A stretch of DNA of 64,000 nucleotides from an uncultured Enterobacterales bacterium (GCA_964610645.1 CAZSZE010000012.1:5095-69094); one strand, 5' to 3'; positions 18,807 through 33,211 are shown, counted from the first letter of the stretch. Notes: a model not told the origin generated them from the sequence alone. Program-made: numbers and translations.

Positions 18807-19008
18807 GGAACCGGCTGCCCAGGTGGCCGTGAAGTGAGGCGTGCGAAATCACACAAGTTCCTGTGATATGCGGGGCCTTGGCGTTGTTTGGCGGTGGTAT
18901 GATCCCTACTACCGCATAGGGAAGACAGGGAGGTCCGGAAACCCCTCCCCTCATGGGCCAGGGGACCGTCGGGCCTGGGGACGAACGCAGGAATCTGGGA
19001 GGCGATTG

Positions 19009-20529
19009 ATGGGAACCGAGTTCGGGGACCTGAGCACGGGCACACCCCACTACTCGGATAACTGGGCCGAAATGAAGGCCTACGTGAGTTTCACCGAGGA
19101 GGACTCACAGAGGCTCGCGGAGGTCCTCCCACTGCTGCGCCCTCACTTCAGGCAGCTGGTGGGGCACTTCTACGAGGTGATCGCAGAGTTTCCAGGGGCA
19201 AGGAGCGTCTTGAAGGACGATTCGCAGGTGGAGCGGCTTCAAAAGACGCTTCTGAATTGGTTGGTCGAGCTCTTTGAGGGACCCCATGACCTGTCCTATT
19301 TCGAGAGCAGGCGGCGAATCGGAGAGGTGCATGTAAGGGTCGGGTTGGAAGAGAGGTACATGTTTACGGCGATGAGCGTCATTCGCAGTGACCTTCTCGA
19401 TGTGGTCGCGGAGGTTTGTTCATCGGAAAAGACGGGCGAGATCAGCCGGTCCATTCTTCGAATCACGGATCTGGATCTTGCGGCCATGACAACTTCCTAC
19501 CGGGAGACACGAGAGCTGGCCCGTCTACAGGCATTGCACTCGGAGGTGGTCCAGAATCTTCCCGCGGGTGTGATTTGCATGGATCGAGCTGGGATCGTCA
19601 CCGCGGTGACAGAGATGACCAGGTTGATCTTGGGAGTGGACGTTGAGGTCGGTGACCAGGCTTTGGAAGTGCTTCCGACAGGGCTGTTCGGTGGAACATC
19701 GCTGGCACAGCTTCTCGAAGAGGTAATCCCTTTGGGGGTCCCCAAGCACATTGGTGGCGTGACCCTGGGCACAGGACAGGAAAGACGGACACTGCGCCTG
19801 AACGTTGTGCCCATGTTCCACGGCCTGTCGGACCTCATGATCAAGGTAGAAGACATCACGGAGGAGACCCGCGCCGAGCTGGAGGCCCGTCAGTCCAAAT
19901 CCCTCGCCCAGATTGGTGCGCTCACGGCCAATCTCGCCCATGAGATTCGAAATCCTCTCGCCGGTATCTCTTCCACGGTGCAGGTGGTGATGGGGGGGTT
20001 GGCGGAGAGTGATCGGCGGCGAAGAGCGCTGGCGCTTGTCACAGAACAGGTCGCCCGGTTGGATCACCTCGTGACCGATCTGCTCCTCTTTGGTCGCGCA
20101 ACGACGCCGCGTTGTGAGCGCACCGACTTGGGTGCTCTTGTTCTTGAGGTCATCAACGACAGGGGTTTCAATTCCGATTTCTTGGAGCGGGGCACAGCTT
20201 TGGCTTGGGCGGATCCGGACTGCGTGTGCCAGGTGCTCGTGAATCTCCTGCAGAACGCACTGGCAGCAGCAGGTCCGGGAGGCAGGGTCCTGGTCCGGGT
20301 AGGCCCGGGCCCGCAATTGGAGGTGCTGGACGATGGGCCCGGCGTGGAGGCGTCCGTACGGGAGACTCTCTTCGGTGCTTTTGTCACCACCAAGGCCAGG
20401 GGTACGGGCCTGGGTCTTGCAATCAGTCGCCAGATTTCGGAAGCGATGTCGGGAACCCTTGTCCTGGTGGAGGCGCCTGAGGATTCCCTTGGGGGGGCCT
20501 GTTTTCGCCTCAGCTTTCCTTCTGCTTGA
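19009..20529 (+). CDS. Globin-coupled sensor histidine kinase (sensor globin - PAS-like - HisKA - HATPase)
   Basis: The ATG at 19009 follows a GGGAGG Shine-Dalgarno sequence. The N-terminal sensor-globin/protoglobin signature has FTEEDSQRL, GHFYEVI (distal Tyr context) and RRIGEVHVRVGL (proximal His context). The H-box is LAHEIRNPLAGI. The ATPase domain has G-boxes (DDGPGV, GTGLGLAI). Confidence 0.8.
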   Translation: MGTEFGDLSTGTPHYSDNWAEMKAYVSFTEEDSQRLAEVLPLLRPHFRQLVGHFYEVIAEFPGARSVLKDDSQVERLQKTLLNWLVELFEGPHDLSYFESRRRIGEVHVRVGLEERYMFTAMSVIRSDLLDVVAEVCSSEKTGEISRSILRITDLDLAAMTTSYRETRELARLQALHSEVVQNLPAGVICMDRAGIVTAVTEMTRLILGVDVEVGDQALEVLPTGLFGGTSLAQLLEEVIPLGVPKHIGGVTLGTGQERRTLRLNVVPMFHGLSDLMIKVEDITEETRAELEARQSKSLAQIGALTANLAHEIRNPLAGISSTVQVVMGGLAESDRRRRALALVTEQVARLDHLVTDLLLFGRATTPRCERTDLGALVLEVINDRGFNSDFLERGTALAWADPDCVCQVLVNLLQNALAAAGPGGRVLVRVGPGPQLEVLDDGPGVEASVRETLFGAFVTTKARGTGLGLAISRQISEAMSGTLVLVEAPEDSLGGACFRLSFPSA

Positions 20530-21901
20530 TCTGGATTCCGTGCTTCTCGAGGCGGTAGCGTAGGGCGTAGCGGCTGATGTCAAGCAGCTTGGCGGCTTGC
20601 ACTTGGTTGCCCTGGGTGCGGGCCAGGGCTTGTTCCAGAAGTTGGCGCTCAACCTCCTCCAGGCTCGCCCCCGCCTCCCCCAGGACCAGCAGATTTTCGG
20701 GAACCGCTTCCCCCGGCTTGGGGTTGTGCGCCCTGGCCTCCTTGGGAAGGTGTGCGACCTCAATTGTCTCGTCTGCCTCAAGGATAATGGCACGCTCGAT
20801 CACGTTTCGAAGCTCCCGCACGTTTCCGGGCCATGGGTAGCTACACATCAGGTCCATTGCTTCCACACTGACACCGGTGATTTCCCGGCGATATTCCCTG
20901 TTGAATTGCCGCACGAAGTGATCCACGAGAAGTGGGATGTCGGTTCTACGCTCTCGAAGAGGAGGCACGACCAACTCCACGACGTTCAGCCGGTAGAAGA
21001 GGTCCTGGCGAAATGTCTTCTTCTGTACCTCTTCTGCCAGGTTTCGGTTTGTGGCCGCGATCACGCATGCGTCCATCTTGATGTCGTGGACGCTTCCCAC
21101 TCGTCTAAACCGCCGATTTTCCATGATTCGAAGGAGCTTGGCCTGCACCCCGATGCCCAACTCCCCGATCTCATCGAGAAAGAGCGTTCCGCCCTTGGCG
21201 ATCTCGAAGAGACCGGGCTTGGCAGTCCTTGCATCCGTGAAGGCACCTCGCTCGTGACCAAACAGCTCCGATTCGATCAGGGTCTCGGGCAGGGCAGCAC
21301 AGTCTACCTCCACATAGAGCCCATCCGATCGGGTGCCCGAGTCATGAATGGCCTTGGCGAGAAGGTCCTTTCCGGTTCCCGTTTCTCCTTGAATCAGGAT
21401 GGCTGGGGGATCCACGTCCTTCAATCGCTCGACGAGGGAGAGGACCCTCCGAATGCCGGCGGATTCTCCGATAATGCGTCCATAGTGGCGCTCGGCGCTC
21501 TTCTTGAGGTATCGAACTTCTAGTTGCAGGCGATGGCTCTTCAGCGCCTTCTCCACGGCGAACTCCACTTCCCGAAGATCGAAGGGCTTGCTCAGGTAGG
21601 CGTGGGCGCCCAGGCGGGTGGCCTCGATGGCTGACTCAATGGCCTCGAAGGCCGTGAGGACAATGACCGGCAGGGTGCTCTCTGTCTCTCGCAGGTGGCG
21701 CAGCACATCCAGTCCGCCCATCTGTGGCATTCGCAAGTCGGTGATCAAGAGGTCTGGTGAGACCGACGTGATCTGTTCAAGGCACTCCTTTCCGTTCTCC
21801 GCTTCGAAGATGCGATAGCCCAGGCCCTCCATGTGCTCCCGAAGCGCCCACCGGATGAGCGGTTCATCGTCACAGATGAGAATGTTGACGGGAACTTCCA
21901 T
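20510..21901 (-). CDS. Sigma-54-dependent response regulator (NtrC family enhancer-binding protein)
   Basis: Probable start is MEVPVNILICDDEP (21901). It has a receiver domain, an AAA+ core with Walker A GETGTGKD and the sigma-54 contact loop GAFTDA (a GAFTGA variant), and a C-terminal Fis-type HTH (AAKLLDISRYALRYRL). The 3' end overlaps the kinase gene by 20 nt (convergent). Confidence 0.9.
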   Translation of the reverse strand: MEVPVNILICDDEPLIRWALREHMEGLGYRIFEAENGKECLEQITSVSPDLLITDLRMPQMGGLDVLRHLRETESTLPVIVLTAFEAIESAIEATRLGAHAYLSKPFDLREVEFAVEKALKSHRLQLEVRYLKKSAERHYGRIIGESAGIRRVLSLVERLKDVDPPAILIQGETGTGKDLLAKAIHDSGTRSDGLYVEVDCAALPETLIESELFGHERGAFTDARTAKPGLFEIAKGGTLFLDEIGELGIGVQAKLLRIMENRRFRRVGSVHDIKMDACVIAATNRNLAEEVQKKTFRQDLFYRLNVVELVVPPLRERRTDIPLLVDHFVRQFNREYRREITGVSVEAMDLMCSYPWPGNVRELRNVIERAIILEADETIEVAHLPKEARAHNPKPGEAVPENLLVLGEAGASLEEVERQLLEQALARTQGNQVQAAKLLDISRYALRYRLEKHGIQIKQKES

Positions 21902-22033
21902 GGGCTGGCATCCTCTCCATTCGCTCTGGAAAAGCCATTTTTCCCAGTCAATCGCTTGCAAGCGCCATGCCGGCTGAATGAAGGCGCCGAGGGGAAGCGT
22001 ACGGCGATCGGGAATGTTCGCCTATTCTGTTGT

Positions 22034-22068: not shown

Positions 22069-22141
22069 TGTTTGGGGGGGGCGAAAGTGCAGGGCAGCGG
22101 CGGATCTTCGGCTGGGCGGGTGGTTGCTCGGGGCCTTGGGT

Positions 22142-22157
22142 TGGCACGCAATGTGCA
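22142..22157 (+). promoter_or_regulatory. Sigma-54 (-24/-12) promoter candidate
   Basis: TGGCACGCAATGTGCA matches the TGGCACG-N4-TTGCW consensus with one mismatch and correct GG/GC spacing. It lies ~100 nt upstream of the boxB-like ATG (22255) and divergent from the sigma-54 activator gene. Confidence 0.55.
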
Positions 22158-22254
22158 CACTTTGACCAAGGCGTTGCTGGGTGTGTCAGAGGTGTTCCCG
22201 TGTGGTTCCCTTGAAGGACACGTGCGGGCCGCAGACCTGGGAGAAGAAGTGGCA

Positions 22255-23664
22255 ATGGACTATGGGGCAACTGTCCCGAACAATGTGGGGCTCGCGAGCG
22301 ACCGGAAGCTACTGCGGGCGCTGGCCGCTTGGCAGCCCAAGTTCCGGGACTGGTGGGCAGATGTTGGCCCCCAGGGGTTCGACCAGGAGGAGGTGTACCT
22401 GCGCACGGCCGTTTCGACGGAGCCGGGTGGGTGGTCGCGCTTTGGGTTTGTGCAGATACCGGAGTATCGCTGGGGCATCTTCCTCGCGGACCCGATCGTG
22501 GATCGCAAGGTCCCCTGTGGGGATGATGCCGGGGAGAGGGCCTGGCAGGAGGTGCCGGGAGATCGGCGGAGCCTGTTGCAGAGCTTGATCGTGACGCAGG
22601 CGGACACGGAGCCGGCGTCGGTGGAGCAACAGCGGGCGCTTGGAAGTACCGCCCCAAGTCTGTACGACGCCCGAAACCTGCTGCAGGTAAATGTGGAAGA
22701 AGGCCGACACCTGTGGGCGATGGTGTACCTGCTCCATCGCTACTTTGGTAGAGATGGCCGGGACCAGGCGGATGACTTGTTGGTGCGGCGAGCAGGGGAT
22801 GCGGACTGTCCCCGAATCCTCGAGGCATTCAACCAACCGTGCGAGGACTGGCTGAGTTTCTTCTGTTTCACCTGTTTCACGGATCGGGATGGCAAGTACC
22901 AGCTGGGAGCCCTGGCGGAGTCCGGGTTTGATCCCCTTTCCCGGACCTGCCGCTTCATGCTCACCGAGGAGGCTCATCACCTGTTTGTGGGAGAACGGGG
23001 CTTGGAGAGAATCCTGCGCAGATCCGTGCAGTTGACTCGAGAGGATCCCAACGGGGACGCCAGGGGACAAGGTGGGATTGACCTCCCCACGCTTCAGAAG
23101 TACTGCAACTTCTGGTTTGCCTATTGTTTGGATCTCTTTGGTTCTGAGGAGAGCTCAAACGCGGCGCAGGCCTTCTCCATGGGGCTCAAGGGGCGGTGGA
23201 AGGAGAACCATCTTGAGGGAGATCATGTCTGTACCCACGGGGAGGTCTCCTTGCCGATGGTTCAGGACGGGGTGCTGGTCCACAAGGATGTGCCTCTTCG
23301 CCGCGCCATGAACGAGCTGCTTCGGGTGGAGTACATCAAGGACTGCCAGCGCGTGGTGGAACGTTGGAACCGGGCTCTTCAAGGAGAGGGAAGCGACTTT
23401 CGGATCAGCCTCCCCAATCACCGGTTCTTTCGACGAAAAGGACTGTACTCCGGGCACAAGTTTGACCCGGAGGGGAGGCTTGTTTCAGAGGCGGAGTGGT
23501 TGAAGCAGCAAGACGATTGGCTGCCCACTGCGTCGGATCGACGCTATGTCCAATCCTTGATGCAACCCTGCCTGGAGCCGGGAGAGATGGCCCATTGGAT
23601 CTGCGCGCCCACCCGTGGAATCAATGGGCGGCCGGTGCATTTCGAGTATCTGCGGGCGTGTTGA
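22255..23664 (+). CDS. boxB: Benzoyl-CoA 2,3-epoxidase (oxygenase) component B-like di-iron protein
   Basis: The ATG at 22255 starts MDYGATVPNNVGL. It shows extended similarity to BoxB as I recall it (WQP.F..WW, YLRTAVS, YRWGIFLA, IVTQADTEPASVEQQR, APSLYD.RNL.QVNVEEGRHLWAMVYLL, FMLTEEAHH, INGRPV.FEY). Di-iron E..H motifs are present. Confidence 0.85.
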   Translation: MDYGATVPNNVGLASDRKLLRALAAWQPKFRDWWADVGPQGFDQEEVYLRTAVSTEPGGWSRFGFVQIPEYRWGIFLADPIVDRKVPCGDDAGERAWQEVPGDRRSLLQSLIVTQADTEPASVEQQRALGSTAPSLYDARNLLQVNVEEGRHLWAMVYLLHRYFGRDGRDQADDLLVRRAGDADCPRILEAFNQPCEDWLSFFCFTCFTDRDGKYQLGALAESGFDPLSRTCRFMLTEEAHHLFVGERGLERILRRSVQLTREDPNGDARGQGGIDLPTLQKYCNFWFAYCLDLFGSEESSNAAQAFSMGLKGRWKENHLEGDHVCTHGEVSLPMVQDGVLVHKDVPLRRAMNELLRVEYIKDCQRVVERWNRALQGEGSDFRISLPNHRFFRRKGLYSGHKFDPEGRLVSEAEWLKQQDDWLPTASDRRYVQSLMQPCLEPGEMAHWICAPTRGINGRPVHFEYLRAC

Positions 23665-23775: not shown

Positions 23776-25215
23776 TCAAAGAACCTCGGCCACGCAGGGG
23801 TGCAAGGTGGACAGGCGTTCGCGCAGGGTTGCCACAATGTCCTGGGTGGCAGAGTCGTCGCCGGACATCGCAGCCGCCACCTGGTGTATTGCCCGGGCCT
23901 CAGGATGGTCTGGCTGGGCCGCCAACACGCGGCTGGCCAATGTTTGCGACTGCTGGAGTCGCCAGGCCGGGTCGTGCCCCCGTACGCAGGCCCACTGGAG
24001 CCAGGACCTTGCCGCCCTGAGCTCTCCTTCTTCAAGGTCGCTATCTGGAGTGGTGGCAGGCAGCGCCGGTGGGGCCGGAACCTCCAGAATATTGGCCTCT
24101 TCAAGAGCCTGGAGCAAGCCACTGACAAGTGCGGAAACGGCAATGGGTCTTGGGTGAACCCAGTCGTAGAACCCGTCATTCCCCGGAGACGGCAGGGCCC
24201 GATTCACGGCGGCTTCCGTGTCTGCCAGTACCACACCCTTGCCGTCGGCCAGGCGACGAATGACCTCGTTGAGGTCTCTGGGGGCTCTCAGCGGCAGGCC
24301 GTCGTGATTCACTGCGGAGGCCAGGGCATTTGCAGGATCCTGGCCTGCTTCTCGAACCTTCAGTCCGAGCTGCCAAGACACGTCAGCGGACTCCGGGAAC
24401 TGGGTGGAGAGACCCTGGAGTTGACCAAGAGTCTGGTCGGACAAGCCGGCGAGGGATTCGGGGCCCTCGGTGCTCCAGTTGGGGTCCAGGCCGGACATGT
24501 TGGAGGCTTGCGTGGCGAGAATCACCGGAACGTCCGCCTTCTCGCTCATTTGGAGGATTCGATTGAGATTGCGCTCGAAGACTCCCACAATGGCTTGTCG
24601 ATGCTCTGGGGACCCATAGGAGGGTGGCCCAATCCAGCCCGGAGAGGTCGTGGGGCGTGGAAGTGCCTGGAGGAGCTGTCGCACGAGGTTGAAACGCCAC
24701 AGACTGGCCGGAAACCGCATGGGAGCTGCCAGGAACTCGTTGTGCCCGTCGTAGACAATCACGGCGCTTGGATGCCAGGAGAGTGCACGATCAAGGAGTC
24801 TCCGCGTGTCATCGGACGCCCCACCGTTGACGCCGAGATTGATGATCTCGAATTTGCCGGGAGCCACGTCGTCTAGGGAGGCCTGGAGGCTCCCAGCGAT
24901 ACCGTGCATCGGTCGGCCCATTGGCTCGGTTCCCCGCGGCCGGGTTGGATATCCAAAGGAGGTCGAGCCCCCGACCAGCAGCAGGCGGGTCACCCCCTCG
25001 GCAGGCTGTACCGAGAACTGGATGGGACGGAACTGTTGGCAGCCGAAGGTGACCTCGGTCTCGGTCTCATCCAGCCAATACCAGGATGGATCGACTGGCC
25101 AGGCGAGGTGGGTGGCGTGGTATTCCAGTGCCGCCAGGGCAACGAAGACGGCGAGCACACAGCTGGCAAAAAGCCGAAAGAGTGGCCAGAGTCGACGCAT
25201 CCCGTTCCCTGTCAC
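23776..25215 (-). CDS. Membrane-anchored SGNH/GDSL-like hydrolase-fold protein with helical C-terminal domain
   Basis: An N-terminal TM helix is present (LWPLFRLFASCVLAVFVALAAL). SGNH-like blocks: LLLVGGSTSFG (block I Ser), NLGVNGGAS, VIVYDGHNEF, YDWVHP (block V D..H). The GTG at 25215 overlaps the upstream stop (GTGA); an alternative ATG lies at 25200. Confidence 0.55.
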   Translation of the reverse strand: MTGNGMRRLWPLFRLFASCVLAVFVALAALEYHATHLAWPVDPSWYWLDETETEVTFGCQQFRPIQFSVQPAEGVTRLLLVGGSTSFGYPTRPRGTEPMGRPMHGIAGSLQASLDDVAPGKFEIINLGVNGGASDDTRRLLDRALSWHPSAVIVYDGHNEFLAAPMRFPASLWRFNLVRQLLQALPRPTTSPGWIGPPSYGSPEHRQAIVGVFERNLNRILQMSEKADVPVILATQASNMSGLDPNWSTEGPESLAGLSDQTLGQLQGLSTQFPESADVSWQLGLKVREAGQDPANALASAVNHDGLPLRAPRDLNEVIRRLADGKGVVLADTEAAVNRALPSPGNDGFYDWVHPRPIAVSALVSGLLQALEEANILEVPAPPALPATTPDSDLEEGELRAARSWLQWACVRGHDPAWRLQQSQTLASRVLAAQPDHPEARAIHQVAAAMSGDDSATQDIVATLRERLSTLHPCVAEVL

Positions 25216-25418
25216 AGCAGGGGGTACACAAAGGGGCTGATGGCTGGAAAGAGGGACAGAACCACGAGGGCAACCGCAAACACCAGGAGAACGACGACGA
25301 CGGGAATAGCGAGCTTGAGCCTATCACCAGACATGGCAGAGAGAACAGCGAAGACCGACTTCAGCGCGGATCGGGAGGCGGCGGAGCGCGTACGCTTCTT
25401 CTGGGGCGGTTGTGTCAT
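25212..25418 (-). CDS. Small membrane protein, DUF5989 (SxtK-like)-like
   Basis: 68 aa with a basic N-terminus, one TM helix and a C-terminal ...ISPFVYPLL. This resembles the ...APFIYTLF ending of the DUF5989 family as I recall it. Both junctions are ATGA/GTGA overlaps. Confidence 0.5.
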   Translation of the reverse strand: MTQPPQKKRTRSAASRSALKSVFAVLSAMSGDRLKLAIPVVVVLLVFAVALVVLSLFPAISPFVYPLL

Positions 25419-27238
25419 GCGGTCACCTTCTTGATGAAGACGTGGTCCACAACCAGGCAGGGGATCTCGCTTCTCGCAAAGAGAAGCAGCGCGTCGGCCG
25501 GGGATGCGGTCAGCGGGTAGCCTCGCTCCTGGAGCTCAAAAAGAGCGAGCGCGGGCAGGCCATGGAGGGCGCCCCATGCTTTGAGCAGCTTGTACAGGCT
25601 CGGGTGGCGCTCCGGGCTGCAGAGCAAGGGCACGCACGTGCCGTCAGGGGCCACGCAGGAGTCAACGAGTGGCCGGGCATCCGGGCAAACCTCGGCCCGG
25701 ACCTGGTTCCAGGGTGCGTCCCACGGAGGATCCACCAAGACCTGTTCCGCATCGTCCGTGGCGATGGCGAGGGAAGGAATGGAGAACTGTGGTTGTCCGG
25801 CGATTCTGTGTGCAGTCTGCGCCAGGGTTGTCGGGTGCTTTGGAGCGGCCAGAATAGCTCGATCTCCCAAGTTCCGCGTGGCACACGAAAACCTGCCCTG
25901 GTGCCATCCGATCGCGTCACCGGACTCCAGAGCGGCAACACAAGCCGCCACCAGAGAGTCCTCATGGGTGTGTACGGTGCGCTCGAGTTCGAGCCCTGAG
26001 GCCGACACGTTGCTCCCGGGCATGCGAAACCGACGCCATGCTCCTGGTCGTAGGTGGGCGGCTGTCTCCGCCGCCTGGTTTGCGTCGTAGGCTCGACCGA
26101 GAAACGGCCATTCGCCGCGTGTTGTTTCCGTCTTTCCGAACCGGGCCCCGTACAAGGCTGCGCCCAGGGCGTTGCCCGCGTCGCCGGGGTCGGGAGGCAC
26201 AAAGATCGCTTCAAACAGTCCAGATCCACGAACCCGACGAACGATCTCCGGGTCGGCTGCGATCTCTCCTCCCAGGCACAGATGGGGGAGTCCGGTATCG
26301 CCCCGGAGCTTCTCGCAAAGCGCCAGCACCCGCTCTGAGATGACCTCCTGAAGCGAGGCGGCGATGTTCGCCAGCTCCTGGTCACGCGGGCTGGAAAGCT
26401 GTCCTCTTTGTACATCGTCCGGGGCGGACCATGGCTTGCGCACGTCCCTCGGGGGACCAAAGGTCGACTCGAACTGCTCGGTCCACGGCTGCCGGAAAGG
26501 AGGAGACTCAAGGCGTTCAAACCGAAACCATCCCGGGCTGACCCGGTAGCTTCCATCCTCGGCGCCCACCAGGATTCGACGAAACTCCTCGAGTCTTGTT
26601 GGTTGGCCGTAGAGAGCGAGCTCACCCAGGTGCCACGCTTCGTTCCCAGGCGGAAAGCCAAGGTGCGTGGCGACGGCCCGGCGGAACAGCCCCAGGGAGT
26701 GTGGGTAGGAGAGGAAGCCATGAGCCAGGAGTTCGATGTCCGGAACTCGGGCTCCCTGCCCCATCGTCGTACAGGGCCACTCCCCCTTGCCATCCAACAC
26801 CAGGATGGCCGCCTCCGGAAACGGAGACGTGAGAAATGCGTTGGCCATGTGCCCCAGGTGGTGTGGGATGAACTCCACCAGGTCGGGGTGCACGTCGAGT
26901 TGGGCGCTGATCTCGTTTCGCACCCAGAGCATGGACTCCATCCACCGCTTCATCGTTCGGACAAATGGGGAGAGCCCTTTGGGGAAGGGAGCGCCGAGCG
27001 TGCAGGAGAAGACGCGACTGAAGCGGTTGTGCGGTTCCTCGTGGTACACCACCAGGTCGAGATCCTCGGCGGTTATCCGGCCCTCGTTCAGGCAGAACTC
27101 CATGGCGTAGGTTGGCACGTTGGGCTCTCCGGACTGCCGCGTGAACCGCTGCTCGGAGGCGGCCGCCACGAGTTGCCCCCCGACCACCAGCGCAGCGGCC
27201 GAGTCGCTGTGCATGGCGGACACTCCGAGCACGTTCAT
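25415..27238 (-). CDS. Carbamoyltransferase (NodU/CmcH family)
   Basis: 607 aa. The N-terminal MNVLGVSAMHSDSAAALVVGGQLVAAASEQRFTR is the typical family start. The two-domain length also fits. ATGA overlaps occur at both ends. Confidence 0.85.
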   Translation of the reverse strand: MNVLGVSAMHSDSAAALVVGGQLVAAASEQRFTRQSGEPNVPTYAMEFCLNEGRITAEDLDLVVYHEEPHNRFSRVFSCTLGAPFPKGLSPFVRTMKRWMESMLWVRNEISAQLDVHPDLVEFIPHHLGHMANAFLTSPFPEAAILVLDGKGEWPCTTMGQGARVPDIELLAHGFLSYPHSLGLFRRAVATHLGFPPGNEAWHLGELALYGQPTRLEEFRRILVGAEDGSYRVSPGWFRFERLESPPFRQPWTEQFESTFGPPRDVRKPWSAPDDVQRGQLSSPRDQELANIAASLQEVISERVLALCEKLRGDTGLPHLCLGGEIAADPEIVRRVRGSGLFEAIFVPPDPGDAGNALGAALYGARFGKTETTRGEWPFLGRAYDANQAAETAAHLRPGAWRRFRMPGSNVSASGLELERTVHTHEDSLVAACVAALESGDAIGWHQGRFSCATRNLGDRAILAAPKHPTTLAQTAHRIAGQPQFSIPSLAIATDDAEQVLVDPPWDAPWNQVRAEVCPDARPLVDSCVAPDGTCVPLLCSPERHPSLYKLLKAWGALHGLPALALFELQERGYPLTASPADALLLFARSEIPCLVVDHVFIKKVTA

Positions 27239-27936
27239 GGAAGTGCCGGAGACTCGAATTCCACGAAACCGGGTGCTTCGTCGAGGCGCTGCCTACAGGC
27301 CCAGGCGCCCCCGAGCAGGCCGAGGACATAGAGAACGGTGAGAAGGACTCTCATGGGAATCTCGCCCAGGCGCCTGGAGAATCGAAGCCAACTCTCCCAT
27401 GCACGCCGCAGCCGAGCACGTCGGATCCACCGATCTGCCTCCTTGGGTGAGCCCACGATGGCGAGGAGGAGCTTGTGGGTGAGGCCTACGTGCCCGAGTT
27501 CGTCCTTTTTTGCTTCAAGGAAGACGCTCCTTGCCGGACAGTCTCCTATTCCTGCTGCGTAGGAGTTGAACTGGTCAAAGACGTCCTTCTCCCCGACGTG
27601 GGCGTGGGCAAGAAACGCTGGTGCGGCATCCTCTCCCTTCAACGGGTCCAGGATGGGATCTCTGTGGAGGAGCGGTTTGGGTGGGTGGGAGGCCTCGTAC
27701 TGGCTGGCAACCCGATCAAACTCGCTGGCGTGGTGGAGCTCTTCGAGGGTGTGCTGGAGAACGAGGGCTCGAGTAGGGGGGTCGTCGATCTGCTCCAGGG
27801 CGTGCAGCAGCTGCCAGGCGCTGTCCGCTTCCATGACTGAAAAGTACTTGAGCCGCGATGCCATTCTCCCGGAGAACGGTCTCCAGGTCAGTGGAACCAG
27901 AACCCTTGTCAGCAGGTTTCGCGGCCAATTCGTCAT
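27235..27936 (-). CDS. Ferritin-like (putative di-iron carboxylate) protein with C-terminal TM anchor
   Basis: Two E...ExxH-type pairs are present (MEADSAW / LEELHH and GEKDVF / KDELGH) in predicted helices. The C-terminus has a hydrophobic helix (VLLTVLYVLGLLGGAWA). The ATG at 27936 overlaps the cytochrome c stop (ATGA). Confidence 0.5.
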   Translation of the reverse strand: MTNWPRNLLTRVLVPLTWRPFSGRMASRLKYFSVMEADSAWQLLHALEQIDDPPTRALVLQHTLEELHHASEFDRVASQYEASHPPKPLLHRDPILDPLKGEDAAPAFLAHAHVGEKDVFDQFNSYAAGIGDCPARSVFLEAKKDELGHVGLTHKLLLAIVGSPKEADRWIRRARLRRAWESWLRFSRRLGEIPMRVLLTVLYVLGLLGGAWACRQRLDEAPGFVEFESPALP

Positions 27937-28958
27937 GGCACCTCGGCAGCGTTCTCCACGGGAAGGGGAGCCGTGATCTGGCCTGTGTCCGCTTCTACCA
28001 GTGCCTTGCGCTGGGCAGCCTCGGGCGTTCCCTTCAGCGCGGTGAGAGAGCCGACATAGTGGGCGATCGCCCAGATTTCCTTGGACTCCAGCGTCTCAGA
28101 CCAGGCCGGCATGGCGGTTCCGGGAATGCCAATTCCAATCACCTGGGCCAGGGAGGCGTTGTCTCTCGCTCGCCTGAGCGGGCGATAGGTGAAGTCCGGT
28201 GGCACGATCATGAGTGGCTGCTCGCAGCGGCCATACCGGCAGACCTGGTCCTCACCGGTACAGTCCCGGTTGGTTTCACAGGCGGGATCGCCAGGGATCG
28301 GGCTGCTGTAGGACTTGCTTTCCTTGGCCTTTGAGCGCCACCTGTTGGGCCGAAAGTCGGTCTTGAATGACAAGCCAAGCTCCTGCCGGTCGGCGTTGGT
28401 GGCCTCGCGCGTCTGGAAGGCGGGGTGGCATGTGGAGCACTCAGCCACGCTGTGGTAGAGCGTTTCGCCCCTCTCAATGGCTGCCTTGTCGTCCGTCCAG
28501 GGGTCTTCTCCCGGACTGTAGGGGGCACTCACCTCTGAGTCCGGGTCGCGCCATCCGTCTCCTTCTGGGGAGAACGTCTTGATGTACTGAATCAGCGGCT
28601 CGAGCATCTGGTCCGGAAGCTCCCATTCCAGCATCGCGGTTCCATGCAAGCCTCCGCGTATCAGGAGCCCAAGGGACTCATCCGTTGGCAAGTACTCAGT
28701 GGAGGTCCCAGTGAACTTGTAGGTCGCGGTTCGCAGGTCGCGGGGGGGCGGCGTGAGGTCCGCGGAGGAGAGGCCTCGACCGTCCCCGTCCGTGCCGTGG
28801 CACGAGATGCAGTAGTAGGAGTACGCCGACTCTCCCGCATTGAGGGTGTCCGCGGAGACGGAGATACCTCCCAGGACCTGGGGCTCGGTGAAGGCGGGCT
28901 CGCAGCCCAACAATGGGGCAAGGACGAGCAGGGAGAGGGCGTGGAATTTGGGGGTCAA
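27933..28958 (-). CDS. Dihaem c-type cytochrome lipoprotein
   Basis: The TTG at 28958 follows a GGAGAAG Shine-Dalgarno sequence and gives (M)TPKFHALSLLVLAPLLGC (lipobox). Haem motifs are CISCHG and CSTCHP, with a Met-ligand context GTAMPAW. The track ORF to 29234 is over-extended. Confidence 0.75.
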   Translation of the reverse strand: MTPKFHALSLLVLAPLLGCEPAFTEPQVLGGISVSADTLNAGESAYSYYCISCHGTDGDGRGLSSADLTPPPRDLRTATYKFTGTSTEYLPTDESLGLLIRGGLHGTAMLEWELPDQMLEPLIQYIKTFSPEGDGWRDPDSEVSAPYSPGEDPWTDDKAAIERGETLYHSVAECSTCHPAFQTREATNADRQELGLSFKTDFRPNRWRSKAKESKSYSSPIPGDPACETNRDCTGEDQVCRYGRCEQPLMIVPPDFTYRPLRRARDNASLAQVIGIGIPGTAMPAWSETLESKEIWAIAHYVGSLTALKGTPEAAQRKALVEADTGQITAPLPVENAAEVP

Positions 28959-29200
28959 AGGACTTCTCCACGAATTGAACTCGATAGGGGCATGGGGGAA
29001 GTGTTCGCTTGATGGGCATGATGAAGCCACCTCAAGAACACTCCCAGGATCAGGATTGGAAGGCCCAGCATCAGGGCGGTTGCGGTGAGGTACGCCATCG
29101 CTTCGTCTCCCCCGAAGATCCCGGCACAATTGGGGCACGCGTCTGCTGTGCCACTTGCCAGGCCCGAGAGGAGCAGCATGAAGGCGATTCGGCTTACCAC
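28955..29200 (-). CDS. Small membrane protein with CPNC motif (unknown; oxidase-operon encoded)
   Basis: 81 aa with a signal-like N-terminus, then ADACPNCAG, then one TM helix (TATALMLGLPILILGVFL) and an HHAH patch. Its stop overlaps the downstream TTG (TTGA) and its start overlaps the upstream gene by 7 nt. Confidence 0.4.
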   Translation of the reverse strand: MVSRIAFMLLLSGLASGTADACPNCAGIFGGDEAMAYLTATALMLGLPILILGVFLRWLHHAHQANTSPMPLSSSIRGEVL

Positions 29201-29784
29201 AGGTACACCAGGCCGTAGAGGGGGGGCCAGACAAGCACCACGAAGGTCCAGTACATTCGCCCGGCTCTAAGGCGATCCATTGATTGGGTGGATCCGGGGT
29301 CCCGGAGGGTCAGCTGGTGGATGCGTGCGAACACAACCAGGGCCACGATCACGTGCAACCCGTGACAGCCCACGAGGGAATAGAACAGGGCGCCGTAGAG
29401 GCTGGAAGATGAGGTGAGTCCGTGCTGGATCAGGCGCCCCCACTCAATGCCCTGAAACACCACAAAGACGGTGCCAAGGGCCAGCGCTGCTCCCCGCAGG
29501 GACCGGGCGATGTTGTGGTTGCCCCGGGCGGATTCGGAGACGCTGCGCCAGAGAGCGCCTCCACTGGCGATAAGAATCGCCGTGTTGATGGCGGTGGCAA
29601 AGACCGGTAGGCGCGGTTGGTCGAGGGGTGGCCAGAGACCTGCTTGGGACCGCAGCACCACGTAGGCGCTGGCCAGGCCACAGAAGAGCATGGCCTCAGA
29701 GATCAGAAACAGTGCGCACCCGAGGACGATGTTGGGAATCGCCGGAGACGGTCGGGTGGGGCGCACCTGTGCTGCTGCGGTCAT
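29194..29784 (-). CDS. Haem-copper oxidase subunit III family protein (second copy)
   Basis: Start is MTAAAQV (29784), with an ATGA overlap with the subunit IV gene. It is polytopic. FQGIEW and GCHGLHVIVAL motifs parallel subunit III. The track ORF to 29973 is over-extended. Confidence 0.7.
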   Translation of the reverse strand: MTAAAQVRPTRPSPAIPNIVLGCALFLISEAMLFCGLASAYVVLRSQAGLWPPLDQPRLPVFATAINTAILIASGGALWRSVSESARGNHNIARSLRGAALALGTVFVVFQGIEWGRLIQHGLTSSSSLYGALFYSLVGCHGLHVIVALVVFARIHQLTLRDPGSTQSMDRLRAGRMYWTFVVLVWPPLYGLVYLW

Positions 29785-30074
29785 TGGACGGGCTCTGCCC
29801 CAAAGACCCAGGCGATGTCCGGAATGAGGCCCACATAGAGCACCATCAGGGCCAACAGGCAGCCGACAATCAGCACCTTGATGGCTCGTTGCTCCAGGGT
29901 CACGTGCATGAAGCGGGAAGCCACAAGCCACGCCTTGAAGAGGGCGATCAAGAAGACAAAGGCAATGGCCCACTGGCTCCCGGAGACAGCTGTGGCCACC
30001 AGCGAGATGCCGAAGGCAACCGACAGCACTATCCAGACCCGGACGTAGTTCGTGGGGGGGTGAGAGTCACTCAT
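29781..30074 (-). CDS. Cytochrome c oxidase subunit IV (prokaryotic type)
   Basis: 97 aa with three hydrophobic helices. The signature IALFKAWLVASRFMHV matches the prokaryotic COX4 family motif (KA.LV...FMH). Confidence 0.7.
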   Translation of the reverse strand: MSDSHPPTNYVRVWIVLSVAFGISLVATAVSGSQWAIAFVFLIALFKAWLVASRFMHVTLEQRAIKVLIVGCLLALMVLYVGLIPDIAWVFGAEPVQ

Positions 30075-30081
30075 GGAAACC

Positions 30082-30651
30082 TCAGCTGGCCAGGTAGAGA
30101 AGGGGGAACAAGAAGATCCAGATCACATCCACGAGATGCCAATAGAGGCCCACGTTCTCCACCCATTCGGGGCTCTTCTGGCTTGGGGTCTTCCACGCGA
30201 CAACGGCAATCGCTGTCATCCCGCCGATGACATGCAGCGCATGGAGGCCGGTCAGGATGTAGTAGAAGGACCAGAACAAGCCAGTCACGGGTGTGTACCC
30301 GGCGTGAATCTCGTGGGAGTACTCAAAGGCCTTGATGCAGAGGAACACGAGCCCCCCGCCCACCGTGAAGAAGAGAAACCGGGAGCTCTTGGCGAAGTCC
30401 CCCTTCGCTGCGGCCTCGTGGGCGAGAATTGCTGTGAGACTGCTGGTGAGAAGCACCATCGTGTTGATGGCGCCGGCGGCCGTCATGGTGTGTGCAGCCT
30501 CTGCGCTCCACTCGGGATGGCGCATCCTCAGGAGCACATAGGTGGTCACGAGGCCACCGAAGATCAGGATCTCGGATCCCAGGAACCACCACATTCCGAG
30601 GCGGCCTGTGGGCGTCTCCGTGGCGGTGCGGCGAATGGAAAGAGTGGACAT
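30082..30651 (-). CDS. ctaE: Cytochrome c oxidase subunit III
   Basis: 189 aa. Motifs: GMWWFLGSEILIFGG, FYYILTGLHALHVIGG, YWHLVDVIWIFLFPLLY. Confidence 0.85.
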   Translation of the reverse strand: MSTLSIRRTATETPTGRLGMWWFLGSEILIFGGLVTTYVLLRMRHPEWSAEAAHTMTAAGAINTMVLLTSSLTAILAHEAAAKGDFAKSSRFLFFTVGGGLVFLCIKAFEYSHEIHAGYTPVTGLFWSFYYILTGLHALHVIGGMTAIAVVAWKTPSQKSPEWVENVGLYWHLVDVIWIFLFPLLYLAS

Positions 30652-30657
30652 GGCTGC

Positions 30658-32373
30658 TCATTTCCCCGCTTGTTGATGGGTTTTCAGTGCATCGAGCGGA
30701 GCGTCGGCTGTCTCGTCGCTCTTCCAGACCGGAAGAAAGTCGGGCCCATCCCCGGGAGGGCTGTAGAAGTAGGGCCCCCGGTAGCTGACGGGGCGTTCGG
30801 TGAAGTTGCCGTGGGGGGGCGGGGAAGCGGTGTTCCACTCCATGGTCGTGGCGTTCCAGGGGTTCTTTCCGGCCACCTCTCCCTTCTTCAACGAAAGGAA
30901 GATGTTGATGACAAAAGGTACCTGGAAGATGAGCATCGCTGCGGTTGCCACGGTGGCAATCGCCTGGAGAGACTCAGCGTGCCCCTGGAGGAAGTCAAAG
31001 GAAGTAGGAACCGCGATGCGGCGGTGGTGCCCCAGGAGCCCCAGTTGGAACAGGGGAATGAAGATTGCGTTGAAGGAGAGAAAGGTGCCCAGAAAGTGAA
31101 TTGTGCCCAAGCGCTCGTCCAGCTTTCTCCCGAACATTTTCGGGTACCAGTGGTAGATGCCAGCGAAAGTGCCGAACAACGTGATGGGGACCAGGGTGTA
31201 GTGAAAGTGCGCCACCACGAAGTAGCTGTCGTGGATGTAGATGTCGGCGGCAGCTGATCCGTTCATGATGCCGGTCACTCCGCCGATAAAGAACAGTCCG
31301 ATGAACCCCAGGGCGAACTGCATGGCGGTGGTGAACCGAATGGACCCCTTCCACAGGGTCGCTACGAAGGCAAACATCGCGACCGCAAAGGGCACAGAGA
31401 TGAGGATTGTGGTCAGACTGAAGGGGGCGGCCAGGCGCGGGTCAATGCCACTGATGAACTGGTGATGGGCCCAGACGACGAAGCTCAAGATTCCAGCAAC
31501 GATCGTGGACCAGACCACATGACGCTGAGCGAACAGGGCCTTCCGCGAGTTCGCGCAGAGGACCTCTCCCATGATCCCAAGAGCAGGCAGGAGGAGCACG
31601 TAGACTTCCGGGTGTCCGAAGAACCAAAACAGGTGCTGAAAGAGCAGCGGGTCTCCCCCCAGGGAATTCGCATAGAAACCGGTTCCGATGGTGCGATCCA
31701 GCAGGAGCATCACCGCCCCCCCGATCAGGGGCCCGACGGAGATCATGAAGACGATGCTGGCGATGACAATCTGCCAGACCACGAACGGCCAGTCCCAGAT
31801 GCGCATTCCCTCGGCACGGAGATTGATCGAGGTGGTGATGAAGTTGATCCCCCCCATGAGAAAGGCCACCAACTCAAGGGCGACAGCCAGAATCCAGAGG
31901 TTCACGCCCCAATCCACGCCGCTGAAGATCGCGTCTGCTGCCAGTGGTGGGTAGGAAGTCCATCCCCCAGCGGCAGCACCTCCCGGAACGAAGAACGACG
32001 CGATCAAGACCACCGTGCTCAAGAAGAAGATCCAAAAGGACATCATGTTGAGCGTGGGAAACGCCATGTCGTCGGTGCCGATCATCAAGGGAATCAACAG
32101 GTTTCCGAAGCCTGCCACCAGCAGGGGCATGGCGACCCAAAAGATCATGATCGAACCATGCATCGTGACGTACGCGTTGTACTCGTGGGGAGAGATGGCC
32201 CCCACCAGGGGCAAGGGGTCGCCCGGCCACGCCAGCTGCAGTCGCATCCCGTAGGCCAGGAGGCCGCCAAGCACGGCCATGACCAAGCCTGTGAACATGT
32301 ACTGCTTGGCGATGACCTTGTGGTCCGTCGAAAAGACGTGGGTTCTAAGGAAACCTTGTGGAGCGTGGTTCAT
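30658..32373 (-). CDS. ctaD: Cytochrome c oxidase subunit I (A1-type haem-copper oxidase)
   Basis: 571 aa. Motifs: FWFFGHPEVYVLLLP (GHPEVY, the A1-type Glu/Tyr motif), WAHHQF, and HDSYFVVAHFHY (haem ligands). Confidence 0.95.
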   Translation of the reverse strand: MNHAPQGFLRTHVFSTDHKVIAKQYMFTGLVMAVLGGLLAYGMRLQLAWPGDPLPLVGAISPHEYNAYVTMHGSIMIFWVAMPLLVAGFGNLLIPLMIGTDDMAFPTLNMMSFWIFFLSTVVLIASFFVPGGAAAGGWTSYPPLAADAIFSGVDWGVNLWILAVALELVAFLMGGINFITTSINLRAEGMRIWDWPFVVWQIVIASIVFMISVGPLIGGAVMLLLDRTIGTGFYANSLGGDPLLFQHLFWFFGHPEVYVLLLPALGIMGEVLCANSRKALFAQRHVVWSTIVAGILSFVVWAHHQFISGIDPRLAAPFSLTTILISVPFAVAMFAFVATLWKGSIRFTTAMQFALGFIGLFFIGGVTGIMNGSAAADIYIHDSYFVVAHFHYTLVPITLFGTFAGIYHWYPKMFGRKLDERLGTIHFLGTFLSFNAIFIPLFQLGLLGHHRRIAVPTSFDFLQGHAESLQAIATVATAAMLIFQVPFVINIFLSLKKGEVAGKNPWNATTMEWNTASPPPHGNFTERPVSYRGPYFYSPPGDGPDFLPVWKSDETADAPLDALKTHQQAGK

Positions 32374-33071
32374 TAGCTCTCGTCCTTTGCTGCCAGCAAT
32401 GACTGCTGGCTCGACGTGTTGTTGACCCAGTCTTCAAAGGACTCGGCTGACTGAACGATGAGCTCACCACGCATCACCGTGTGGGAGGCACCGCAGATCT
32501 CTGCACAAGCGATCTCATAGGTGCCCTCCACCGTCGCCTCAAACCAACCCGGAATGGACCGGCCTGGGACCGCGTCCTGCTTGAGTCTCAGCTCCCGCAC
32601 AAAGAACGAGTGAAGCACGTCTTTTGACTCGAGTTGAAAGCGGACAATGCCGTCCTTGGGGACGTGCAACTCAGAGACCGTGCCGAAGTCGTCCGCGGTG
32701 TCCAGGACCCCGTCCTCCCCGGCGTAGGTAAAGTCCCAGGCAAACTGGCGAGCCGTCACCCGGACAAGCAGGTCGTGCGCCGGAACATCAATCTTCACTT
32801 CGTCCCAGACCGCGTTGCTGCGAATGTCGATCACCATGTCGCAGATGAAGACCAGTCCCACCGGGACATAGATCCAAGCAAGGGACTTTCGGCTGACCCC
32901 TGGCATCCAGGCTGCGCGGACTTTGTCTTTGCGGCGAAAGGCCACGATCGCGTAGAGAAGCAAGCCTTCGCACACCACCAGCCAGGCGAAAGCCAGCCAC
33001 CAGATGAGAAGAATGATCCCGTCGATGGCAATTCCGGATGAGGAAATTGCGGCAGGTAGGTCACCAGGCAT
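32373..33071 (-). CDS. ctaC: Cytochrome c oxidase subunit II (no fused cytochrome c domain)
   Basis: The ATG at 33071 starts MPGDLPAAI. It has two TM helices. The CuA motif is HSFFV...CAEICGASHTVM. The stop overlaps the ctaD ATG by 1 nt (TAATG). The track ORF to 33869 is over-extended. Confidence 0.9.
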   Translation of the reverse strand: MPGDLPAAISSSGIAIDGIILLIWWLAFAWLVVCEGLLLYAIVAFRRKDKVRAAWMPGVSRKSLAWIYVPVGLVFICDMVIDIRSNAVWDEVKIDVPAHDLLVRVTARQFAWDFTYAGEDGVLDTADDFGTVSELHVPKDGIVRFQLESKDVLHSFFVRELRLKQDAVPGRSIPGWFEATVEGTYEIACAEICGASHTVMRGELIVQSAESFEDWVNNTSSQQSLLAAKDES

Positions 33072-33211
33072 GAGCGAACTCTCCCGTTTCGCGAATTCGA
33101 TTGGGCTAAACGCAATGGTCGTGCCAACTCGGTTGGACGGTAGAAGGCGGGTTTCGGAGCGCTTCCTTCCTGTGGGTGTCCGACAGGGGAGGGCGTACGT
33201 GCCCATCGTTG

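Follow-up and report, generated by a model that had tools for sequence, protein, structure and literature searches.

A four-gene module joining a ferritin-like protein to a carbamoyltransferase homologue in an uncultured Enterobacterales bacterium, and its likeness to sxtIJKL

Introduction

In saxitoxin biosynthesis clusters, four genes stand next to one another: sxtI, which encodes a carbamoyltransferase, sxtJ (134 aa), sxtK (54 aa) and sxtL, which encodes a GDSL lipase. The function of SxtJ and SxtK is unknown, and they are only "hypothesised to work in conjunction" with SxtI (PMC2679770, PMC2684587). Here we analyze a locus of similar composition in a 64,000-nucleotide stretch of DNA from an uncultured Enterobacterales bacterium (GCA_964610645.1, CAZSZE010000012.1:5095-69094), referred to below as the window. 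Positions 23776-27936 of its minus strand encode a ferritin-like protein (FL), a carbamoyltransferase homologue (CT), a DUF5989-like mini-protein and an SGNH-fold protein (SGNH).

Class III carbamoyltransferases are two-domain enzymes in which the YrdC domain makes carbamoyl-AMP by means of a KxR...SxN tetrad and the Kae1 domain carries out the transfer by means of an HxxH...D site (PMC9654439). In GdmN the ligands are His-133, His-137, Asp-156 and Asp-333, and the base is His-27 (PMC9633730). A first-pass annotation of the window knew of no characterised system with the composition of this locus, and none was found in the literature, where searches for DUF5989, for an O-carbamoyltransferase with GDSL and polysaccharide, and for a carbamoyltransferase with rubrerythrin returned nothing relevant.

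Results

A co-conserved module of four protein classes

The first-pass annotation had read the interval as four minus-strand genes for a ferritin-like di-iron candidate, a NodU/CmcH-type carbamoyltransferase, a DUF5989-like mini-protein and an SGNH-fold membrane protein. All four open reading frames (ORFs) are present in the ORF listing and on direct reading of the strand, and the four identities are borne out by the analyses below. FL occupies 27235-27936 (233 aa), CT 25415-27238 (607 aa), the mini-protein 25212-25418 (68 aa) and SGNH 23776-25200 (474 aa, from the ATG at 25200); all coordinates of module features given in this text are on the minus strand. Look-ups of encoding contigs, scans of metagenomes and genomes, and a search of plasmids gave 23 distinct FL loci in total (L numbers denote loci), and a scan of genome contigs with CT yielded a single locus. 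CT directly follows FL in 23 of the 23, and this linkage persists down to 23% FL identity (L025 and L026). Every one of the 17 loci whose sequence continues beyond CT also has a DUF5989 gene, which in L021 is located on the upstream side of FL. Most loci have SGNH as a neighbour: 10 carry a gene of the window type downstream (in inverted orientation in the case of L008), L004, L016 (two copies), L026 and L010 are flanked by SGNH genes from other subfamilies, and none is found nearby in L021, L024 or L032. The gene-neighbourhood comparison that the first-pass annotation had put forward as a check thus supports co-conservation of the four genes. The flanks (TetR/EAL genes, radical SAM genes, two-component systems, ABC transporters and others) are unrelated among loci; in this the module behaves like a self-contained unit. 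A tblastn search of plasmids with the window FL gave no match.

The genes of the module are tightly packed. Of the three 4-nt start/stop overlaps described in the first-pass annotation, the two ATGA overlaps stand, at 27235-27238 between FL and CT (a -4 junction in 8 of 14 orthologous loci) and at 25415-25418 between CT and the mini-protein (9 of 14). The third, GTGA, is present in the sequence at 25215-25212 but probably contains no real start. The closest SGNH orthologues (L001 and L007) have no start codon overlapping the mini-protein stop and begin at a conserved MRRLWPL.../MNGL... N terminus past a spacer of 11-13 nt with a Shine-Dalgarno-like GAGAGG or AGGGA, and in contigs that match the window at 100% identity the public gene calls start SGNH at the ATG and give 474 aa. 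SGNH thus likely starts at ATG 25200, after an 11-nt spacer; the alternative start at GTG 25215 (23776-25215, 479 aa) was rejected on the evidence of the orthologue N termini. We also rejected the CT start at Met-9 in the public gene calls, because CT homologues begin MN(I/V)LG(V/I)S. A fourth overlap, absent from the first-pass annotation, is the ATGA at 27936-27933, where the stop codon of a di-haem cytochrome c gene meets the FL start. Overlaps of 4 nt are frequent in operons and unremarkable alone; co-conservation, unlike the overlaps, exceeds chance, and the locus amounts to a module of four protein classes that is both conserved and translationally coupled. An Rfam scan of the window gave no match.

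Comparison with sxtIJKL and other carbamoyltransferase cassettes

The likeness of the CT/mini-protein pair to sxtI/sxtK, drawn in the first-pass annotation, extends to the whole of sxtIJKL. By protein class the window has putative counterparts of the class III O-carbamoyltransferase (~610 aa), the DUF5989 protein (~50 aa) and the GDSL lipase of that set, and its CT-like, SxtK-like and GDSL genes are co-oriented. The slot of SxtJ is filled in the window by the 233-aa ferritin-like di-iron candidate, of which only the C-terminal anchor is weakly SxtJ-like and whose relation to SxtJ is unproven. The window further differs in its gene order (FL-CT-mini-protein-SGNH), in a CT that lacks GPRALG and KxR...SxN, and in having no toxin core genes nearby.

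The same protein classes also occur together, in one operon, in cassettes known by annotation only. Ensifer canadensis pT173d carries genes for a GDSL/AlgX-like protein, an SxtJ-like protein, a DUF5989 protein (84 bits) and a CT, followed by a family 4 glycosyltransferase (GT4), a sulfotransferase, a pectate-lyase-like gene and an oligosaccharide flippase. Plasmid pSC52_3 of Rhodobacteraceae SC52 carries SxtJ (28 bits), an unannotated DUF5989 gene, CT and GDSL, the Ralstonia solanacearum megaplasmid a CT, a 68-aa gene and SGNH, and a Leisingera sp. S132 plasmid (L034) a CT and GDSL beside YjbH/YjbF and ManC. These cassettes differ from the window in having SxtJ instead of FL, in their canonical CTs (HHxxH, GPRALGxRS and NTSFN) and in SGNH proteins that are not similar by BLAST to that of the window. 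In L034 (1-4790) the CT and SGNH genes are followed by a second gene annotated "carbamoyltransferase C-terminal domain-containing protein", making a tandem CT beside the exopolysaccharide genes yjbF/yjbH.

Closest to the window are the modules in which FL is paired with a canonical CT, namely a locus in Sphingobium (L032), the metagenomic loci L004, L016 and L026, and the fusion protein P0052. These share with the window the FL family, the gene order and the overlaps, and differ from it in CTs that keep every catalytic residue. Their other partners vary: a GT2-glycoside hydrolase (GH) synthase and a tetratricopeptide repeat (TPR) protein in L004, SGNH proteins of other subfamilies in L016 and L026, and a cupredoxin and an S-adenosylmethionine (SAM) methyltransferase in Sphingobium. 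The Sphingobium locus, on plasmid pTomTYG65a of Sphingobium sp. TomTYG65 (AP027331.1, 153207-157303; TomTYG65_28700-28740), encodes a Sec-exported cupredoxin, FL, a canonical CT annotated as nolO, a DUF5989 protein and a class I SAM methyltransferase, joined by overlaps of 4, 1 and 4 nt. Its FL matches the FL family with an hhalign probability of 99.6% (E = 6e-25), and a plasmid search with it found only itself. Taken together, these comparisons suggest that the window module is a lineage-specific variant of a widespread CT-SxtJ-SxtK(DUF5989)-GDSL cassette. Apart from the sxt cluster, this class of cassette is known through annotation alone, and the FL variant and its clade of eroded CTs appear to be undescribed.

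FL is a candidate di-iron protein with a C-terminal membrane anchor

A word-index search with an alignment of 141 FL sequences returned at least 13 proteins. Across 13 close and 141 diverse relatives, six residues of FL are invariant or nearly so: Glu-36 (27820-27834), Glu-66 and His-69 in the first ExxH motif (LEELHH, residues 64-69, 27730-27747), Glu-116 (27583-27597), and Glu-146 and His-149 in the second (27490-27507). The family has further conserved residues of its own, Trp-18, Phe-32, Asp-38, Phe-73, Arg-92 and Phe-123. An AlphaFold2 model built from the alignment reached a mean confidence (pLDDT) of 86. The top 50 Foldseek matches to it are nearly all ferritin-like proteins (bacterioferritin, ferritin, PaaC and MiaE), with a best E value of only ~0.07 and a best query-normalised TM-score of 0.54, to MiaE. 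Both the E...ExxH...E...ExxH ligand pattern and the modelled four-helix bundle are those of the ferritin-like di-iron carboxylate superfamily, which makes FL a di-iron candidate.

At the level of sequence the family stands apart. The window FL scores above the curated threshold of no ferritin-type Pfam or NCBIfam model (Rubrerythrin, COQ7, AurF, MiaE or ferritin), its PDB profile matches have E values of 1e-3 or weaker, and the Pfam matches found among the 141 relatives (Rubrerythrin in 89, COQ7 in 18 and AurF in 13) are mostly sub-threshold. An exhaustive profile search gave 454 cluster representatives (50% identity) at E ≤ 1e-3 and 148 at E ≤ 1e-30, nearly all of 200-260 aa, and by these measures FL is a sizeable, undescribed family of ferritin-like proteins. 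The ratio of non-synonymous to synonymous substitutions (dN/dS, NG86 method, as for all ratios below) is 0.08-0.21. Coq7, alternative oxidase and plastid terminal oxidase (AOX/PTOX) and rubrerythrin-type domains share with FL the four-helix bundle, the ligand pattern, a hydrophobic membrane-attachment segment and the want of a dedicated reductase gene alongside; none of them has a significant sequence match to FL, and the window protein falls under every Pfam threshold. Two natural fusions were found in the representative library: in P0052 (847 aa) FL is joined to a complete canonical CT, and in P0041 (434 aa) a PEMT/ICMT/NnrU-like membrane methyltransferase is joined to FL.

Hydropathy and the family consensus point to a membrane-attachment region near the C terminus of FL (27295-27414), made up of a basic amphipathic helix, RLRRAWESWLRFSRRLGEI, a hydrophobic anchor, MRVLLTVLYVLGLLGGAWAC, and a conserved RxRL. 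The family consensus of the helix is R.RRAW..W.RFg..lGE, and the hydrophobic segment has conserved basic residues on both sides and often a central Gly-Pro. Coq7 and AOX are interfacial di-iron enzymes, and we consider the FL segment a probable monotopic anchor. Given the natural FL-CT fusion and the basic residues flanking the hydrophobic segment on both sides, FL is more likely to be monotopic on the cytoplasmic face than membrane-spanning, and a spanning arrangement was set aside on the same two grounds. The first-pass annotation had called FL membrane-anchored: the hydrophobic C-terminal anchor is there, but it more probably dips into the membrane than crosses it.

The same region bears some likeness to SxtJ. 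The Pfam SxtJ model (PF19588) matches 3 of the 141 full-length FL relatives, with a best E value of 7.4e-4; model positions 47-81 match the FL C-terminal segment, two fragments at E values of 0.04 and 0.13; and hhalign places the same region against SxtJ at 0.06. The window FL itself has no SxtJ match. The resemblance is weak, and we regard it as suggestive rather than established.

CT keeps its fold and a metal site but not the canonical adenylation residues

CT scores well above threshold against both Pfam models of its family, Carbam_trans_N (E = 1e-40, 140.5 bits, cut-off 24) and Carbam_trans_C (4e-18, 65.9 bits, cut-off 27), in keeping with the NodU/CmcH type first assigned to it, and aligns over its full length with NovN (7e-43), TobZ (7e-36) and also GdmN. 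Its Kae1-like (~26144-27238) and YrdC-like (~25418-25948) domains give it the full-length architecture common to TobZ, NovN, GdmN and NodU/NolO (PDB 3VEN, 9S2T and 7VYJ; PMC9633730, PMC9654439). The locus does not belong to a Nod-factor decoration system (NodC/NodU/NolO): CT reaches 41.6 bits against a cut-off of 1000 for the NodU equivalog of NCBIfam, and the 64-kb window holds no GT2 (family 2 glycosyltransferase) or NodC homologue. NCBIfam searches gave only weak EncB and NodU matches.

Catalytic residues were assigned from a HMMER alignment to NovN/TobZ and two MAFFT alignments, all of which were concordant. The Kae1-type metal motif HHLGH (26849-26863) and the partner Asp residues in VLDGKGE (26780-26800) and DPGDAG (26174-26191) are retained, so that the window CT, like those of L001 and L007, keeps the Fe-binding His/His/Asp/Asp set of the TobZ/NovN/GdmN class. 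The putative base His, in AMHSDS (27200-27217), is displaced by one residue from the canonical xHD, the window having SAMHSD where S(Y/A)xxHD is expected. In contrast to those enzymes, the adenylate-forming YrdC-type site (25529-25897) is degenerate: GPRALGxRS has become ATRNLGDRA (25856-25897), KxR has become AxQ (IAGQ, 25793-25804) and SxN has become ExQ (FELQ, 25529-25540). The tetrad reads TxK...GxE in L001 and TxR...AxQ in L007, and because the replacements differ among these three closest orthologues the positions appear to be unconstrained.

The erosion is a property of the clade to which the window belongs, 13 loci in which the CT catalytic residues are lost in differing patterns. The ten loci beyond the closest three (FL ≥46% identical to that of the window) show varied losses from both CT sites, and many clade members have lost the metal site. 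Among FL-linked CTs, only those of L004, L016, L026, L032 and P0052 are intact, keeping all catalytic residues together with GPRALGxRS and NTSFN; a canonical YrdC tetrad and GPRALGxRS are also found in L029, L030, TobZ and NovN. CT nonetheless evolves under constraint, with dN/dS values of 0.16-0.26 overall and 0.14-0.41 per domain; dS is saturated in pairs that include the window (1.2-3.4), and the unsaturated pair L010/L011 gives 0.26. Because the genes are intact and dN/dS is low while the catalytic residues are replaced, CT in the window appears to be maintained, but not for the canonical two-step chemistry. The carbamoylation step of the first-pass annotation does not hold up well here: the residues required for carbamoyl-AMP formation are missing (AxQ...ExQ for the tetrad and ATRNLG for GPRALG), no second CT gene lies within the 64-kb window, and carbamoylation by this CT alone is doubtful.

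The DUF5989-like mini-protein and SGNH

The mini-protein has a basic N terminus, a single transmembrane helix (25248-25313) and an invariant C-terminal PxxxPF(V/I)YPL motif (25215-25247). The window copy scores 15.9 bits against DUF5989 (PF19451), under the 27-bit cut-off, and all 16 of the 16 orthologous mini-proteins match the model (best E = 1.5e-7; 37 bits for the Sphingobium orthologue). The same PF(I/V)Y motif occurs in the bona fide DUF5989 proteins of L029 and L030. In its length (within 50-70 aa), its one transmembrane helix, its PF(I/V)Y end and the CT gene beside it, the mini-protein answers to the description of an SxtK-type protein. It is predicted to lie with its N terminus inside and its conserved tail at the outer face; CT, which needs ATP, would be cytoplasmic. 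A word-index search with the 68-aa sequence found only itself.

SGNH exceeds the Pfam threshold for Lipase_GDSL_2 (38 bits, cut-off 32.9). It has an N-terminal signal/anchor segment (25126-25182), catalytic blocks GGS (24952-24975), NGG (24820-24840), YDGxNE (24733-24753) and DWVHP (24145-24165), and a helical C-terminal domain. The four blocks, the N-terminal helix and two Cys residues are invariant in nine orthologues, and dN/dS is 0.12-0.17. The signal/anchor segment and the two Cys residues fit an extracytoplasmic domain. PDB matches are weak and fall on acetyl-xylan esterases, NCBIfam has no match for the family of the window SGNH, and a single-sequence model (pLDDT 41) was not used. The SGNH genes at L016 (3473-5679) and L026 (157-1215) have weak NCBIfam matches to the Leptospira "LA_2486/LA_2490 family GDSL esterase", which hints at a related, unexplored Leptospira locus.

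Genomic neighbourhood

Directly upstream of the module lies a cox operon (27933-33100, minus strand) encoding COX2, COX1 (30658-32373), COX3, COX4, a second COX3-like protein and the di-haem cytochrome c. The last of these, a lipoprotein with two CxxCH motifs and the lipobox LLGC, occupies 27933-28958 (minus strand); its ORF is open to 29234, and public gene calls start near 28958. We found no terminator-like site between the genes, and all of them may be transcribed together. The coupling of cytochrome c to FL is kept only in the closest clade (L001 and L005), not in L007 or other contexts, and the cytochrome c gene is probably not a core part of the module. In L020 (7829-16000) a diverged module (FL 46% and CT 29% identical to those of the window) is followed on the same strand by genes for cytochrome c, COX2, COX1 and COX3, a second adjacency of module and cytochrome oxidase operon, in the opposite order to that in the window. 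In the Sphingobium locus, too, FL is coupled to a periplasmic electron carrier, which is odd given the apparent cytoplasmic-face location of FL.

Genes related to glycans lie beside several modules: in L004 a GT2 protein with five transmembrane helices and a GH-like domain together with the TPR protein, in L003 a family 87 glycosyltransferase (GT87) and a sulfotransferase, in L022 an arylsulfotransferase and a GT4, and in L024 a phosphoglucomutase/phosphomannomutase (PGM/PMM). Sulfotransferases recur beside the cassette (Sulfotransfer_3 in L003 and L030, the arylsulfotransferase in L022), and the sxt cluster has them as well. Together with the methyltransferase of L032 these genes resemble a toolkit for glycan or Nod-factor-style decoration.

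Other neighbours were noted in passing. A BoxB gene (22072-23664, plus strand; 699 bits), for the benzoyl-CoA 2,3-epoxidase subunit, which is a di-iron enzyme in its own right, runs convergently to the SGNH gene; its synteny is kept in L001, L005 and L007, and the otherwise identical contig L027 has two shorter gene calls. Downstream of BoxB (18841-21961) lie a histidine kinase with a protoglobin domain and a sigma-54-dependent response regulator, both conserved in L001 and L005. Radical SAM genes stand just downstream of the module in L003 (13078 to the end of the contig) and L023 (5164-6531), one of them with a Zn_ribbon_HMPTM domain.

Discussion

The explanation we favour, with confidence a little above even, is that the locus encodes a membrane-associated tailoring module in which the CT-like protein serves as a scaffold and which acts on a substrate of the exported glycan or glycolipid class. 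A basic amphipathic helix and a hydrophobic, hairpin-like anchor would fix FL to the inner membrane on its cytoplasmic side, where FL and the single-pass DUF5989 protein would together keep the soluble CT-like protein membrane-bound in a complex. As an O2-activating di-iron oxidase or hydroxylase, probably fed with electrons from the membrane as in Coq7 and AOX, FL would oxidise or hydroxylate a membrane-associated substrate, which in the canonical relatives CT would then O-carbamoylate. Modules of the ancestral type (L004, L016, L026, L032 and P0052), whose CTs are canonical, would thus both oxidise and O-carbamoylate their substrate. In the window clade CT, which keeps its fold but has lost the residues that make carbamoyl-AMP, would instead most likely be a scaffold or substrate-binding subunit, non-catalytic or half-catalytic, rather than a carbamoyltransferase sufficient by itself. 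SGNH, exported or anchored outside the cytoplasm, would add an ester to the exported product or remove one from it. As the substrate, an exported glycan or glycolipid (an exopolysaccharide or a lipo-oligosaccharide) is the likeliest class, which we favour because of the glycan-related neighbours of L003, L004, L022 and L024 and of the exopolysaccharide genes that surround the Ensifer and Leisingera cassettes; our confidence in this part is lower than in the explanation as a whole. A bolder version probably goes too far: that FL, the CT-like protein and the DUF5989 protein form a new membrane-bound oxygenase complex with a dead CT as its substrate-binding or scaffold subunit, wired through the membrane to cytochrome c here and to cupredoxin in Sphingobium, and that SxtJ/SxtK-type proteins are a general docking platform for this class of CT.

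Several observations weigh against the tailoring-module explanation. Loss of the canonical residues does not prove that CT has lost all activity, since the Kae1-like site could use an adenylate from elsewhere. FL has no evident reductase partner, and its recurrent redox neighbours, cytochrome c and cupredoxin, are periplasmic, which misfits an FL on the cytoplasmic face; the membrane association and topology of FL are themselves read from sequence only, and its similarity to SxtJ is sub-threshold. Glycan-related neighbours occur in only about one-third of contexts, a share with no background rate behind it, and in the window no substrate-synthesis gene, glycan genes included, lies within 10 kb of the module. 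The SGNH partners of the different cassette types, moreover, show no detectable similarity to one another.

Of the rival explanations the one that survives best, although we judge it unlikely, is the active pathway of the first-pass annotation, in which FL oxidises, a competent CT O-carbamoylates and SGNH acylates or deacylates a membrane or envelope substrate. The unambiguous family membership of CT, the Kae1-type ligands kept in the window, L001 and L007, and purifying selection on both CT domains are all compatible with it, and the existence of canonical FL-linked CTs implies that the ancestral module carbamoylated. For the window itself it would require a CT in which all four residues of the tetrad and GPRALG are replaced, differently even among the three closest orthologues, to remain active, in a clade whose other members have lost metal ligands as well and with no second CT gene in the window.

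Less probable still, to our minds, is a role linked to respiration, with FL as an interfacial di-iron oxidase dependent on quinol or another electron carrier, or as an accessory of the aa3-type cytochrome c oxidase, and with the CT-like protein, DUF5989 and SGNH as its partners. The ATGA coupling of FL to the di-haem cytochrome c that ends the cox operon, seen in the window and in the relatives closest to it, suggests such a link, as do the position of the L020 module directly upstream of cyt c-COX2-COX1-COX3, the Sphingobium cupredoxin gene that overlaps the FL start and the weak COQ7 and AurF matches among FL relatives. However, cox, cytochrome and cupredoxin genes are all missing within 8-10 kb in at least 12 other contexts, FL is invariably partnered by CT and not by a respiratory gene, and the FL-CT fusion places FL on the side of the membrane where ATP is, opposite the periplasm to which cytochrome c and cupredoxin belong.

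We regard as very improbable a cassette that tailors a small secondary metabolite, saxitoxin-like or another carbamoylated natural product. The closest named analogue, sxtIJKL, does sit in a toxin cluster (PMC2679770), and the characterised CT relatives TobZ, NovN and GdmN tailor antibiotics, but the flanks of the window and of the 23 loci hold no polyketide synthase, non-ribosomal peptide synthetase, amidinotransferase or other core biosynthetic genes, the three partner proteins are all membrane-associated or exported, and the module moves among unrelated housekeeping contexts. Finally, we can give scarcely any credence to a decaying, functionless remnant of a once-active carbamoylation cassette: the progressive, heterogeneous loss of CT catalytic residues across the clade might suggest one, but more than 15 lineages have kept all four ORFs intact, the FL ligands, SGNH blocks and DUF5989 motif are invariant, gene order and overlaps are conserved, and dN/dS values of 0.08-0.26 across all four genes led us to reject pseudogene decay.

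The interest of the locus reaches beyond the window. Cassettes of the CT-SxtJ-SxtK-GDSL kind are widespread, and what SxtJ and SxtK do in them has gone unexplained ever since the first description of the saxitoxin cluster. The FL variant adds to this cassette a partner whose predicted di-iron site makes its chemistry readable, the FL-CT fusion argues for a physical complex, and Sphingobium sp. TomTYG65 is a cultured host that carries the variant. The "carbamoyltransferase" labels borne by genes of the window clade are likely misleading. Having shed the adenylation residues while remaining under purifying selection beside conserved catalytic partners, the CT of this clade may be a case of an enzyme turned scaffold.

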